DNA of 33,627 bases from a phage, in assembly GCA_012551655.1 (NCBI GenBank), contig GCA_012551655.1_3034.1. One strand, given 5' to 3'. Below the pieces are notes generated by a model. The model was not told where the DNA came from. It saw only the letters and a list, made by a program, of their open reading frames with translations, and searched no databases. Shown here piece by piece: positions 1,765-15,293 of this stretch (the stretch's first letter is position 1; the number at the start of each line of letters is the position of its first letter). The position numbers were made by a program, and so were the translations under genes.

Positions 1765-4700
1765 ATGGCCGAGATTAAAAGAAAGTTCAGAGCAGAAGAT
1801 GGTCTGGACGCAGGTGGCGATAAAATAATCAACGTAGCTTTAGCTGATCGTGCCGTAGGAACTGACGGTGTTAACGTTGATTACTTAATTCAAGAAAACA
1901 CAGTTCAACAATACGATCCAACTCGTGGATATTTAAAAGATTTTGTAATCATTTATGATAACCGCTTTTGGGCTGCTATAAATGATATTCCAAAACCAGC
2001 AGGAGCTTTTAATAGCGTACGCTGGAGAGCGTTACGTACTGATGCAAACTGGACAACTGTTTCATCAGGACCTTATCAATTAAAATCGGGCGAATCAATT
2101 TCAGTTGATACTGCAGCTGGTAATGACATTACATTTACTTTACCATCTTCTCCAATTGATGGTGATACCATCGTTCTCCAAGATATTGGAGGAAAACCTG
2201 GAGTTAATCAAGTTTTAATTACAGCTCCGGTACAAAGCATTGTAAATTTTAGAGGTCAGCAAGTACGTTCAGTACTAATGACTCATCCAAAATCACAGAT
2301 AGTTTTAATTTTTAGTAATCGTCTGTGGCAAATGTATGTTGCTGATTATAGTAGAGAAGCTGTAGTTGTAACTCCTGCGAGTCTCTATCAGGCACAATCA
2401 AACGATTTTATCGTACGTAGATTTACTTCTGCTTCAGCAATTAATATTAAACTTCCAAGATTTGCCAATCATGGCGATATTATTAATTTCGTTGATTTGG
2501 ATAAATTAAATCCTCTTTATCACACAATTGTTACTACATATGATGAAACAACTTCAGTACAAGAAGTTGGAACTCATTCCATTGAAGGTCGTACATCGAT
2601 TGACGGTTTCTTGATGTTTGATGATAATGAGAAATTGTGGAGATTGTTTGACGGGGATAGTAAAGCACGTTTACGCATTATAACAACTAATTCTAATATT
2701 CGTCCAAACGAAGAAGTCATGGTATTTGGCGCGAATAATGGAACAACCCAAACAATTGAACTTCAGCTTCCGACTGATATTTCTGTTGGTGATACTGTCA
2801 AAATTTCCATGAATTACATGAGAAAAGGACAAACAGTTAAAATCAAAGCTGCCGGTGAAGATAAAATTGCTTCTTCAGTTCAATTGCTGCAATTTCCAAA
2901 ACGTTCAGAATACCCACCTGAAACTAAATGGGTGACTGTTCAAGAATTAGTTTTTAATGGTGAAACCAATTATGTTCCAGTTTTACAGCTTGCTTATATC
3001 GAAGATTCCGATGGAAAATATTGGGTTGTACAGCAAAACGTTCCAACTGTAGAAAGAGTAGATTCTTTAAATGATTCTACTAGAGCAAGATTAGGCGTAA
3101 TTGCTTTAGCTACACAAGCTCAAGCTAACGTCGATTTAGAAAATTCTCCACAAAAAGAATTAGCAATTACTCCAGAAACATTAGCTAACCGTACTGCTAC
3201 AGAAACTCGTAGAGGTATCGCAAGAATAGCAACTACTGCTCAAGTTAACCAGGATACTACATTCTCTTTTGCTGATGATATTATCATCACTCCTAAAAAG
3301 CTGAATGAAAGAACTGCTACTGAAACTCGCAGAGGTGTTGCTGAAATTGCTACGCAGCAAGAAACTAATGCAGGAACCGATGACACTACAATCATCACTC
3401 CTAAAAAGCTTCAAGCTCGTCAAGGTTCTGAATCATTATCTGGTATTGTAACTTTTGTATCTACTGCAGGTGCTACTCCAGCTTCTAGCCGTGAATTAAA
3501 TGGTACAAATGTTTATAATAAAAACACTAATAACTTAGTTGTTTCACCTAAAGCCTTGGATCAGTATAAAGCTACTCCAACACAGCAAGGTGCAGTAATT
3601 TTAGCAGTTGAAAGTGAAGTAATTGCTGGACAGAGTCAAGAAGGATGGGCAAATGCAGTTGTAACTCCAGAAACGTTACATAAAAAGACATCAACTGATG
3701 GAAGAATTGGTTTAATTGAAATTGCTACGCAAAGTGAAGTTAATACAGGAACTGATTATACTCGTGCAGTCACTCCTAAAACTTTAAATGACCGTAGAGC
3801 AACTGAAAGTTTAAGTGGTATAGCTGAAATTGCTACACAAGTTGAATTCGACGCAGGCGTCGACGATACTCGTATCTCTACACCATTAAAAATTAAAACC
3901 AGATTTAATAGTACTGATCGTACTTCTGTTGTTGCTCTATCTGGATTAGTTGAATCAGGAACTCTCTGGGACCATTATACCCTTAATATTCTTGAAGCAA
4001 ATGAGACACAACGTGGTACACTTCGTGTAGCTACACAGGTCGAAGCTGCTGCAGGAACATTAGATAATGTTTTAATAACTCCTAAAAAGCTTTTAGGTAC
4101 TAAATCTACTGAAGCGCAAGAAGGTGTTATTAAAGTTGCAACTCAGTCTGAAACTGTGACTGGAACGTCAACAAATACTGCTGTATCTCCAAAAAATTTA
4201 AAATGGATTGTGCAGAGTGAACCTACTTGGGCAGCAACTACTCTGATAAGAGGTTTTGTTAAAACTTCATCTGGTTCAATTACGTTCGTTGGTAATGATA
4301 CAGTAGGTTCAACACAGCCATTAGAATCATATGAGAAAAATGGTTATGCAGTATCACCATATGAATTAAACCGTGTATTAGCAAATTATTTGCCGTTAAA
4401 AGCAAAAGCTGCTGATACAAATTTATTGGATGGTCTAGATTCATCTCAGTTCATTCGTAGGGATATTGCGCAGACAGTTAATGGTTCACTAACCTTAACC
4501 CAACAAACGAATCTGAGTGCCCCTCTTGTATCATCTAGTACTGCTACGTTCGGTGGATCAGTTTCAGCAAATAGTACATTAACTATTTCTAATACTGGAA
4601 CAGCAACTCGATTGATTTTTGAGAAAGGACCTCAAACTGGAACAAACCCAGCCCAAACGATGACTGTTAGAGTGTGGGGTAATCAATTTAGTGGGGAATC

Positions 4701-10770: not shown

Positions 10771-11550
10771 ATGGCAGTAGTAGGAATCCCTGGTTGGATT
10801 GGGACTTCAGCCGTTGCTGAAACGGGACAAAGATGGATGACGGCTGCTTCAAGGGAACTTCGTTTAGGAAACCCTTCATGGATGTCCCAATTCGCGGGCC
10901 GTTCAAGAGAAATAATTCACACACTTGGAGCAGACCATAACTTCAATGGTCAATGGTTCCGAGATAGATGTTTTGAGGCAGGTAGTGCACCTATAGTGTT
11001 TAATATCACCGGAAATTTGGTATCATATAGTAAAGATGTTCCATTATTCTTTATGTATGGCGATACGCCAAATGAATATGTTACTTTGAATATTCATGGC
11101 GGAGTTCATATGTGGGGACGAGGTGGTAACGGTACTGTAAACGGAAACCCAGGCACTAATGGTGGCGATGTAATCCAAAATGATATCGGCGGAAGACTTC
11201 GTATTTGGAACTATGGCGTTATTGCATCAGGCGGTGGCGGTGGTGGTGCAGTGTCATTACAGAATAGCTGGGCACCAAATGCTACAGCAGGTGGCGGTGG
11301 TGGTAGACCGTTTGGCATCGGCGGAGGCGGCGTTAATTGGCCGGGTGGTAATGCTAGTTATGACGCGCCCGGCGGTGCCGGTTACACTTCCCAATTCGGC
11401 GGAGGCAATGGCGGTGATGCTGGAGGTCGGGGTGGAGATGGATGGGGTAATCACTTATCTAGATCCGGCGGTGGTGCTCCAGGTAGAGCGGTATTCGGTT
11501 CTTCACCATCATGGGGTGCAACAGGCACGATCTACGGTTCCTGGATTTAA
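10771..11550 (+). CDS. 38: gp38 receptor-binding adhesin of the T2/T6 type (259 aa, glycine-rich motifs)
   Basis: N-terminus [23 protein letters not shown]... and C-terminal half with poly-glycine blocks ([43 protein letters not shown]) as in T2-type gp38; the T4-type gp38 is a 183-aa chaperone. Confidence 0.9.
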
Positions 11551-11569
11551 ATGGTAATACCTCTCAGCA

Positions 11570-11577
11570 TATAAATA
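11570..11577 (+). promoter_or_regulatory. Late promoter for holin gene t
   Basis: TATAAATA 19 nt upstream of the t ATG; SD aaggagg. Confidence 0.7.
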
Positions 11578-11595
11578 TCCTTAAAAGGAGGGTCT

Positions 11596-12252
11596 ATGGC
11601 AGCACCTAGAATATCACTTTCGCCCTCTGATATTCTATTTGGTGTTCTAGATCGCTTGTTCAAAGATAACGCTACCGGGAAAGTTCTTGCTTCCCGGGTA
11701 GCTGTCGTAATTCTTTTGTTTATGATGGCGATTGTTTGGTATAGGGGAGATAGTTTCTTTGAGTACTATAAGCAATCAAAGTATGAAACATACAGTGAAA
11801 TTATTGAAAAGGAAAGAAATGCACGCTTTGAATCTGTCGCCCTGGAACAACTCCAGATAGTTCACATATCATCTGAGGCAGACTTTAGTGCGGTGTATTC
11901 TTTCCGCCCTAAAAACTTAAACTATTTTGTTGATATTATAGCATATGAAGGAAAATTACCTTCAACAATAAGTGAAAAATCACTTGGAGGATATCCTGTT
12001 GATAAAACTATGGATGAATATGCAGTTCATTTAAATGGACGTCATTATTATTCCAACTCAAAATTTGCTTTTTTACCAACTAAAAAGCCTACTCCCGAAA
12101 TAAACTACATGTACAGTTGTCCATATTTTAATTTGGATAATATCTATGCTGGAACGATAACCATGTACTGGTATAGAAATGATCATATAAGTAATGACCG
12201 CCTTGAATCAATATGTGCTCAGGCGGCCAGAATATTAGGAAGGGCTAAATAA
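11596..12252 (+). CDS. t: Holin T (218 aa)
   Basis: MAAPRISLSPSDILFGVLDRLFKDNATGK... with one N-terminal TMD and large periplasmic domain; size and sequence as recalled for T4 holin; follows 38. Confidence 0.9.
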   Translation: MAAPRISLSPSDILFGVLDRLFKDNATGKVLASRVAVVILLFMMAIVWYRGDSFFEYYKQSKYETYSEIIEKERNARFESVALEQLQIVHISSEADFSAVYSFRPKNLNYFVDIIAYEGKLPSTISEKSLGGYPVDKTMDEYAVHLNGRHYYSNSKFAFLPTKKPTPEINYMYSCPYFNLDNIYAGTITMYWYRNDHISNDRLESICAQAARILGRAK

Positions 12253-12965: not shown

Positions 12966-13048
12966 AGACCTTCCCCTTGTGTTTCTGTTTGCGATTAGAT
13001 TCTTTAAACGCTTTCTTCTTATCTTTATGAACAGAAGCTTTATTAAAA

Positions 13049-13267
13049 TTATGCTTTGCGACTAAATTGTTCATAGTGCTGAATTACCTCTCTCAAACAT
13101 TTGCATGTGAATGAAAACTTTTTAGCTACACCACATTCAAATATGTGTTCTCTTAAATCACGTGTATCAGTATATCCCATCTCAACAATAAAATGCCGTA
13201 TTAGATTTTTATCTTTATCATTGAGAGAATTAAAATAATCAGATTTTGAATTAATTTCCCTGGCCAA
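13049..13267 (-). CDS. Hypothetical 72-aa protein (arn.x-like), probable TTG start
   Basis: ORF with SD aaggtga 5-6 nt before TTG at 13267; Cys-rich (ECGVAKKFSFTCKC); no ATG near the 5' end, so start uncertain. Confidence 0.4.
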   Translation of the reverse strand: MAREINSKSDYFNSLNDKDKNLIRHFIVEMGYTDTRDLREHIFECGVAKKFSFTCKCLREVIQHYEQFSRKA

Positions 13268-13547
13268 ATTGAATCACCTTCAGTTGACGTTTTAATTCTT
13301 TTATCATTTCTTCGTTCATCGCAATATAAAGATCGCGTAAAGCGGGTTTTAGCATTCCATTTACCGGAAAACTAAATGGGCATACATAATCTTTTCCTAC
13401 AAGCTTTTTAGTTAATTCCATATCACAGAACTGAAATGCCGGTTCATTGGCATAAATTCCCCAATTAGTTGACATCATTTTATTGGCATATTCCAACGCC
13501 TGGATTTGATTCATAATTCCATCAATTTGAAACTTTTTAATATTCAT
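13251..13547 (-). CDS. Hypothetical 98-aa protein
   Basis: ATG with GAGGA SD, start overlaps upstream stop by 1 nt; sits in the T4 arn.1-arn.4 position. Confidence 0.6.
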   Translation of the reverse strand: MNIKKFQIDGIMNQIQALEYANKMMSTNWGIYANEPAFQFCDMELTKKLVGKDYVCPFSFPVNGMLKPALRDLYIAMNEEMIKELKRQLKVIQFGQGN

Positions 13548-14008
13548 TAGTAAAGGTCCTCAGAGTAAAGTTCTTTTTCACTACCACCACGTTCAATACG
13601 TACTTGTCCAGCGTAAGTTGCAATAATCATTGCTTCTTCACGTGTCCAATAATTACTATATTGGTCAATAAATCCTTGGTCATCATCGCAAACTTGCTGA
13701 GTAACTAATTGAGGTTTAACTACATCTAAAACTTCTGCCATATCTTTAGAATAATGACGAGCACCTGGAATAATAAGAGTTCGTCCATCTTTTAATTTAA
13801 AACGATTGGCTGCGCAAACAATCCGTCGTTGATACTTTTGGTTTTCATCCCAATATGCAGTCTGCCAACAGATTTCAGGAACTTCTTTCAGAATATCTTC
13901 TTCTGTGCATTTATAACCATGCGCTTTAAATTTTTCAACAAGACTTTCTGGAGTCTCACGAGATAAAGGAACATTCAGCATTTTTAAACGATTAATAAAT
14001 GGGTTCAT
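13547..14008 (-). CDS. Hypothetical 153-aa protein
   Basis: ATG at 14008 overlaps upstream stop (ATGA); SD-like ggatgg; no motif I can name. Confidence 0.6.
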
Positions 14009-14334
14009 TTAAACCATCCTTTAATACGCTGCCACAAAGTTTTCTGTTGAGCTTTGTTAACACCAATTGAACGAATAACTGGTTGAGATTCCTGGAATTC
14101 TTTATAATCAGCAAGGTAAATTTCGTAAGCTGCATCCGTAAATGAACTTATCGCTGCCATAAAATTATTGCGAATACCTACTGGAGCATCTTTACTTTCA
14201 CGAATAATCATGTATTTACCAGTCTTAATCTTTACAATAGTTCCAAGATAAGCTCCATGGTACCAAATATCCCAACCCTCTTGAGTAGGTTCTGCACAAC
14301 GACGAAGTTCATTGACAATTTCTAACTTGTTCAT
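14005..14334 (-). CDS. Hypothetical 109-aa protein (motA.1 position)
   Basis: ATG with GAGGA SD, 10 nt downstream of the motA stop. Confidence 0.6.
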
Positions 14335-14980: not shown

Positions 14981-15006
14981 TTTGTTTCTCCGTAGTTGAT
15001 AAGACT

Positions 15007-15036
15007 ATAATACCATAAGTTAAAGCAGAAGTAAAC
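15007..15036 (-). promoter_or_regulatory. T4-type early promoter for motA
   Basis: GTTTAC (15036-15031), 18-bp spacer, TATTAT (15012-15007), conserved leader tatcaactacggag, then ATG. Confidence 0.55.
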
Positions 15037-15077: not shown

Positions 15078-15293
15078 TTAGATTGATAGGTCTTTAATCT
15101 TAGCTATTAAAACAGCTTTTCCTTCACGAAGTTTTTCCAGTTTACGACCATTAGAGCCGCGAACTACTAAGGAATTTATCTCCACTTCCAACCAATTTAG
15201 TTTTTCAACTAGTTCTTTACGTTTAGCATTCATGCCGGGTTTAACTTTACCGAAACGGGTGGTAGCGTTTTGAGTATTTTTCATCTTATTCAT
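15078..15293 (-). CDS. Hypothetical basic 71-aa protein
   Basis: ATG at 15293 with GGAGA SD, downstream of an early promoter; K/R-rich. Confidence 0.55.
   Translation of the reverse strand: MNKMKNTQNATTRFGKVKPGMNAKRKELVEKLNWLEVEINSLVVRGSNGRKLEKLREGKAVLIAKIKDLSI

Follow-up and report, generated by a model that had tools for sequence, protein, structure and literature searches.

What do the small genes between motA and the anti-restriction gene arn of a T-even phage encode, and on what might their products act? The question is raised by a stretch of phage DNA of 33,627 nucleotides (nt), contig GCA_012551655.1_3034.1 of assembly GCA_012551655.1, which is referred to below, at its full length, as the window. 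A preliminary description of the window placed four uncharacterised early open reading frames (ORFs) at positions 12966-14334 and considered them candidates for host-defence or host-takeover functions. As judged from sequence and gene order, the block is not new: it is the already catalogued arn.1-arn.4 of phages T4 and T2, together with a 39-codon gene that had been overlooked. The explanation favoured here, with moderate confidence, is that of a co-transcribed cassette of five unrelated small accessory proteins, controlled by the host small RNA ArcZ as in T2 and most likely acting on host components. The genes of the block and the two genes that flank it are the following (lengths in amino acids, aa).

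14980 to 14345, minus strand: motA, 211 aa, Pfam MotA_activ and MotCF
14334 to 14005, minus strand: arn.4, 109 aa, Pfam PF26821 Phage_T4_Y16F, phrog_1594
14008 to 13547, minus strand: arn.3, 153 aa, Pfam PF26092 T4_Y16D, phrog_839
13547 to 13251, minus strand: arn.2, 98 aa, Pfam PF26819 Phage_T4_Y16C, phrog_1844
13267 to 13049, minus strand: arn.1 (TTG start), 72 aa, phrog_4452
13074 to 12955, minus strand: unnamed ORF, 39 aa, Pfam PF23876 DUF7230, phrog_1359
12965 to 12687, minus strand: arn, 92 aa, Pfam DM_Arn, E 1e-53

The window is a segment of a T2/T4-like phage of the genus Tequatrovirus. The 2.6 kb around the block are 96-98% identical to many Tequatrovirus genomes, and 805 of the 50,697 phage records searched match this region. 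The T4 and T2 records name the genes between motA and arn as arn.1, arn.2, arn.3 and arn.4, and the same order, strand and motA-to-arn position are found in T4, T2, Manna, AV118 and Roth04. The full order motA-arn.4-arn.3-arn.2-arn.1-39-aa ORF is kept in the Mosigvirus AV118 and in Klebsiella phage Roth04. Relative to the arn.1-arn.4 of T4 and T2 (UniProt Y16x_BPT4), genes, order and neighbours are the same; the DNA of the block is near-identical to that of T4 (mean column identity of 99% in a three-way alignment), and the proteins are 93-100% identical. The Pfam families assigned to the block (Phage_T4_Y16F, T4_Y16D and Phage_T4_Y16C) are themselves named after T4 proteins; these Y16-family assignments are precomputed matches on homologues or near-identical cluster representatives and on locus L230. 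Roth04 (734-1091 and 2126-3077 of its locus) departs from the common layout in several details: its arn.4 is split by a frameshift, an extra 59-aa ORF lies between arn.4 and arn.3, its Arn.3 lacks the N-terminal region, and three unrelated ORFs stand in place of arn. The downstream end of the cassette is therefore variable.

The coding evidence for the block is strong. The four ORFs of 72, 98, 153 and 109 aa are all present on the minus strand, and the Shine-Dalgarno (SD) sequences ascribed to them were found: GAGGA, AAGGA and GAGGA stand 8, 9 and 10 nt before their respective ATG codons, and AAGGTGAT stands 5 nt before a TTG. The stop-start overlaps described earlier are also real, with ATGA (4 nt) between arn.4 and arn.3, TAATG (1 nt) between arn.3 and arn.2, and 17 nt between arn.2 and arn.1. 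The count of four, on the other hand, falls short by one, the block comprising five genes. Each of these has an SD motif at a sensible spacing, and neighbours overlap by 1-26 nt, so that translation is probably coupled. Full-length matches to PHROG profiles were obtained for arn.1 (4452/6212, 7e-39), arn.2 (1844, 8e-50), arn.3 (839, 5e-74) and arn.4 (1594, 2.5e-54). The preliminary description had proposed a survey of T-even phages. In a translated search (tblastn) of the phage records, Arn.3 was found in 1,582, the 39-aa ORF in 1,219, Arn.4 in 1,002, Arn.2 in 944 and the annotated 43-aa part of Arn.1 in 804; Arn.2 and Arn.1 are restricted to T-even-like phages. Sequence comparison indicates that purifying selection acts on all five genes in hundreds of phages.

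The gene arn.1 is best read as starting at a TTG and encoding 72 aa, as in the preliminary description, and the 43-aa annotation of T4 and T2 appears to be too short. In these references, only the last 43 codons are annotated, from an internal ATG (13180 here), which leaves 70 nt as "intergenic". The longer call is preferred on account of conserved upstream codons, synonymous changes and a strong SD sequence. An ORF of 70-72 aa is also open in AV118, from an ATG, and in Roth04, from a GTG, and Roth04 has Leu in place of the internal Met. Over the 28 upstream codons, the comparison with AV118 gives 13 identical, 7 synonymous and 8 non-synonymous codons, and that with Roth04 gives 4 identical, 11 synonymous and 12 non-synonymous ones; the upstream codons are constrained at least as much as the annotated part. 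Within the "intergenic" 70 nt, the window, T2 and T4 differ at four sites, each a synonymous third-position change. The 29-residue extension, searched alone, is in frame in 684 records. The internal ATG is preceded by a mere adjacent GAG, whereas the TTG is served by the strong motif listed below. Gene callers often skip arn.1 altogether.

13273 to 13280, minus strand: SD sequence of arn.1, AAGGTGAT, 5 nt upstream of the TTG (13267-13265)

The overlooked fifth gene overlaps both the 3' end of arn.1 and the start of arn. Its 39 codons match DUF7230 with 44.9 bits against a gathering cut-off of 27 (E 1.2e-11), and conservation at the protein level is seen in AV118 and Roth04. The annotations of T2, AV118 and Manna include the gene, whereas that of the T4 reference lacks it. 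The product is very basic, with an isoelectric point (pI) of 10.2. A likeness to the ribosome-rescue factor ArfA was considered and rejected, as BLASTP returned no alignment between the two.

A second annotation problem concerns arn.4. Arn.4 is a small alpha-beta4-alpha-alpha protein with a pI of 9.2, and its N-terminal 41 residues are its most conserved part. The comparison of records indicates that it is 109 aa long and not 68 aa, as annotated in the T4 reference, where ATA replaces the start ATG (T4 locus 3335-3457). This ATA occurs in just 3 old or derived records, and the recent T4 assembly OZ209057.1 (locus 1105-1434) has the ATG and the full 109 aa. In all eight T2/SV76 records, a 2-nt deletion frameshifts the conserved N-terminal part (T2 locus 1828-1948; window 14212-14334). 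Consequently, whereas the window carries an intact ORF, both classic laboratory references lack an intact arn.4. No convincing match to the AlphaFold model of Arn.4 was found in the PDB.

The block most likely forms part of a motA-to-arn transcription unit. No terminator-like site was found in the 10 nt that separate motA from arn.4, or from there on to arn. Upstream of motA, two promoters overlap.

15004 to 15036, minus strand: early-type promoter GTTTAC-N18-TATTAT with a TG extension, and middle promoter with the MotA box TGCTTTA-N11-TATAGT

The MotA box lies inside the spacer of the early promoter, and its -10 element is shifted by 3 nt. The label "early" given in the preliminary description is thus borne out by the early-type promoter but is incomplete, given the overlapping middle promoter and the report that in T2 arn.4-arn.3-arn.2-arn.1-arn is a single middle transcript (Collins et al., bioRxiv 10.64898/2026.06.19.733364). 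Expression of the block at early as well as at middle times is plausible. Further upstream, between motA.1 and motA, a very basic ORF of 71 aa (15078-15293, minus strand; phrog_6200, pI 10.45) occurs in phage Manna but not in the T4 or T2 reference. It has an early-type promoter of its own (15365-15337), with a strong terminator hairpin (15419-15398) upstream of that promoter.

Post-transcriptional control of this transcript has been described in T2. According to the same preprint, ArcZ pairs at arn.2 +285..+294, as supported by RIL-seq and reporter data, and the pairing shields the RNA from RNase E at a proposed GCAUU motif 11 nt before the arn.1 ATG. The protection is tied to Arn-dependent evasion of McrBC, and loss of mcrC suppresses the arcZ defect (bioRxiv 10.64898/2026.06.19.733364). 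Both sites are present in the window and identical to those of the T2 arn operon.

13254 to 13263, minus strand: ArcZ pairing site CCAGGGAAAT, exact complement of ArcZ 5'-AUUUCCCUGG-3', at arn.2 +285..+294
13192 to 13196, minus strand: GCAUU (GCATT) motif, 11 nt upstream of the internal ATG, putative RNase E site according to the T2 preprint

The window has a single copy of the 10-nt pairing site, and T2 and T4 carry the same sequence. The ArcZ sequence itself is found at 100% identity in 5,417 of 5,426 E. coli genomes and reaches 120.8 bits with the Rfam ArcZ model. A sliding scan of duplex energies gave -24.5 kcal/mol for the known site against a mean of -14.7; many windows were stronger, and the scan consequently lends no independent support to the site. 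Folding of the arn.2/arn.1 junction RNA revealed no significant structure (z -0.04). The start assigned to arn.1 changes the reading of this region. If arn.1 starts at the TTG, the ArcZ site corresponds to its codons 2-5 and the RNase E motif is coding, within codons 24-26, whereas the T2 preprint describes a "70-nt intergenic region"; the reading as arn.1 coding sequence is absent from it. Pairing of a small RNA within approximately the first five codons can block initiation. ArcZ may therefore gate the translation of arn.1 directly, and such gating could account in part for the effect on transcript stability observed in T2.

Among the five products, Arn.3 offers the most structural detail. 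Its AlphaFold model is confident, with a predicted local distance difference test (pLDDT) score of 86.6 and a predicted template modelling (pTM) score of 0.82, and places three helices at the N-terminus ahead of a beta-beta-beta-beta-alpha-beta-beta-alpha-alpha core. The N-terminal region (approximately residues 1-57) is variable, and the core (approximately 58-153; PF26092 T4_Y16D / phrog_839) is conserved. In an alignment of 78 sequences, H85, G112, F113, R123, Q135 and L147 are invariant; in one of 40 sequences, R61, A66, A67, R69, R84, Q111, D115 and Y120 are invariant as well. The polar residues that are invariant or nearly so comprise R84, H85, Q111, D115, R123, Q135 and the C-terminal SEDLY. 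The predicted pocket formed by these residues probably binds or processes a small ligand, which would probably bear a phosphate, and the variable N-terminal region would serve as an adaptor. No convincing PDB match to the model was found; for the N-terminal region, a winged-helix DNA-binding domain of the ArgR/Fur type is a tentative candidate.

The core family is large, with 3,351 cluster representatives at E <= 1e-3, and is found in T4-like, rV5-like, Ackermannviridae and phiKZ-like phages. Many relatives are stand-alone proteins of 83-100 aa, and some carry N-terminal extensions of no known domain. When a degenerate DNA pattern for the core was searched, 93 of 99 matches in viral contigs were true members, as against 4 of 120 in bacterial genomes; the family is, on this measure, essentially viral and almost phage-only. 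In the surroundings of 93 Arn.3-like genes from IMG/VR, no neighbouring family recurred in more than 4 loci, so the core behaves like a module that stands alone. Nor did Pfam reveal a recurrent or partner domain in 78 diverse core proteins and 19 longer relatives, some of them apparent fusions. One homologue, in the Kuttervirus Salmonella phage dinky (2369-2782 of its locus), is labelled a "C-N hydrolase superfamily protein". It is encoded directly after the topoisomerase II genes, with a homologue of the anti-DarTG2 macrodomain Tk.4/AdfM some 500 bp away; this closeness to a counter-defence gene may be chance. The hydrolase label was examined for Arn.3 and dismissed, as no match to CN_hydrolase or an enzyme family was obtained in Pfam, NCBIfam or the PDB, and the alpha-beta-beta-alpha sandwich fold of the nitrilase superfamily was not seen. 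From its sequence features, the Arn.3 core could be a new enzyme or a "sponge" for a nucleotide-derived host signal, serving as a stand-alone counter-defence module in many unrelated phage families. This reading of Arn.3 and the gating of arn.1 by ArcZ from a TTG start are together considered rather unlikely.

The description of the block as uncharacterised stands: remote-homology and fold searches yielded no function for any product. Single-sequence searches of Pfam, NCBIfam, PADLOC and the PDB returned sub-threshold noise (Prok-E2_B at 0.057, Nif11 leader, PD-T4-9_B, REase_II, TNF ligand), profile searches of PDB sequences with Arn.3, Arn.4 and Arn.1 gave no match, and nothing relevant was found in the literature on PF26092, DUF7230 or Y16D. 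Two published T4 screens bear on dispensability. In CRISPRi-ART, knock-downs of arn.1-4 were all scored "Not Fit"; in HIDEN-SEQ, insertions hit 13/13, 21/22, 33/34 and 16/16 TA sites, and all four genes were classed as "Non-essential". Both screens used the short annotations of arn.1 and arn.4. Because of these results and the arn.4 frameshift in T2, arn.1-4 are regarded as accessory genes, dispensable in laboratory hosts, as expected of host-interaction genes.

On the favoured account, the five genes, packed head to tail and probably translated in a coupled manner, would owe their transcription to the early and middle promoters that precede motA. The RNA would be stabilised by ArcZ at the arn.2/arn.1 junction, as shown in T2. 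Each product would most likely act on a host component that matters in certain host genotypes only, in counter-defence or takeover; stoichiometric binding is the likelier mode of action for Arn.4, Arn.2, Arn.1 and the basic 39-aa peptide. A role in counter-defence or host takeover is a reasonable guess, based on position, dispensability and phage-restricted distribution, and the preprint on T2 already states that arn.1-4, of unknown function, are "conceivably" involved in counter-defence (bioRxiv 10.64898/2026.06.19.733364). The closest functional parallels are the T4 proteins NrdC.1 (anti-Septu) and Tk.4/AdfM (anti-DarTG2), which, like Arn.1-4, are small accessory proteins with no known domains and dispensable in K-12. 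Several points weigh against this account. The link to host defence or takeover is drawn from the position beside arn, asiA and motA, and neither experiment nor homology was found to connect one of the five proteins with a defence system or host target. NrdC.1 and Tk.4/AdfM have a demonstrated defence partner, whereas Arn.1-4 show no depletion in the two HIDEN-SEQ tables examined: in the reference versus rnlA library comparison their log2 fold changes range from -0.05 to 0.75, and between K-12 and the uropathogenic isolate CFE299 from -0.08 to 0.07, with an adjusted p of 1 in both. In the comparison with CFE299, by contrast, nrdC.1 and other counter-defence genes, known or new, fall by about 5 log2 units. 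The main text of the HIDEN-SEQ paper makes no mention of arn.1-4, either among its hits or elsewhere. Finally, control by ArcZ comes from experiments in T2 only, reported in a preprint.

Other explanations of the block differ in what they take the gene products to be. The proteins might be host-takeover factors for gene expression, acting on transcription, RNA decay or translation, and not counter-defence proteins. The genes do lie between motA and asiA and share the motA promoters, the pI of the 39-aa peptide is as expected of a nucleic-acid or ribosome binder, and in T2 the transcript engages Hfq/ArcZ and RNase E, according to the preprint. However, none of the structural matches reaches significance, the N-terminal region is missing from most Arn.3 relatives, and neither knock-down nor insertion produced a phenotype in rich medium. 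Moreover, the Arn.3 core occurs in phages without MotA and AsiA (Ackermannviridae, rV5-like and phiKZ-like), and this explanation is therefore considered possible but somewhat unlikely. Far less probable is a function mainly of the RNA itself, with the block as a long, regulated leader through which Arn output is set and with ORFs that are incidental or weakly functional. The link in T2 between ArcZ protection and Arn-dependent McrBC evasion, with suppression of the arcZ defect by mcrC loss, would suit such a leader. It is at odds with protein-level conservation accompanied by many synonymous changes, with invariant residues in Arn.3 and Arn.4, with the retention of individual SD sequences, with Arn.3 relatives that occur alone in unrelated phages, and with the unremarkable folding of the junction RNA.

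The remaining two explanations are contradicted more directly. Homologues of these proteins are widely labelled "anti-restriction nuclease", as is phrog_4452 in its description, and on these names Arn.1-4 might be taken for paralogues or partners of Arn, either as nucleases or as DNA mimics. Arn, a DNA-mimic inhibitor of McrBC, shares the transcription unit with the block and is likewise small and dispensable, but it is acidic, with a pI of 4.55, whereas Arn.4 (9.2), Arn.3 (5.3), Arn.2 (8.6) and Arn.1 (8.5) are not and have no known anti-restriction activity. The only DM_Arn match in Pfam is arn itself, with none for Arn.1-4 or the 39-aa ORF; BLASTP of Arn against Arn.1-4 gave nothing below E 3, and no similarity was found among Arn.1-4 either. 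In the absence of any likeness to Arn and of an acidic character, the product label has apparently been propagated from the gene symbols arn.N and from phrog_4452, and a kinship with Arn is highly improbable. The last explanation, that of diverged housekeeping proteins of replication, nucleotide metabolism or morphogenesis, could point to the Kuttervirus homologue of Arn.3 with its "C-N hydrolase" label near topoisomerase genes. It is extremely improbable: all four genes are non-essential in T4, arn.4 is frameshifted in T2, and the searches for enzyme families came back empty. Homology to housekeeping proteins, which the preliminary description had named as evidence against its proposal, was not detectable for the block in Pfam, NCBIfam, PADLOC or PDB searches.

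The block itself adds little, being one more copy of T-even genes that have carried the label "hypothetical" for decades. Two leads follow from it: the re-annotation of arn.1, with its bearing on ArcZ, and the T4_Y16D domain of Arn.3. The reference annotations used by functional-genomics screens are wrong for arn.1 (43 instead of 72 aa) and arn.4 (68 instead of 109 aa) and lack the 39-aa gene; the guide and insertion counts for the genes of the block are consequently incomplete, and T2 cannot report on arn.4. The first reported use of a host small RNA by a phage, that of ArcZ by T2, has been interpreted with an "intergenic region" that is read here as coding, and this reading implies different mechanisms to be tested for ArcZ. 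Arn.3, in turn, contains a domain of unknown function that ranks among the larger phage-specific ones. The size of the family and the confident AlphaFold model make it a reasonable target for biochemical screening.

The wider surroundings of the block contain the following genes.

16898 to 15570, minus strand: gene 52, 442 aa
12690 to 12538, minus strand: asiA.1, 50 aa
12525 to 12253, minus strand: asiA, 90 aa
11596 to 12252, plus strand: holin gene t, 218 aa

No Rfam family reached its gathering score anywhere in the window. Directly upstream of the holin gene, a glycine-rich ORF of 259 aa (10771-11550, plus strand) resembles the T2-type gp38 tail-fibre adhesin, which places the phage in the adhesin group of T2 and not of T4. 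The highest GC content of the window, 0.447 at 11001-12000, falls on this ORF.

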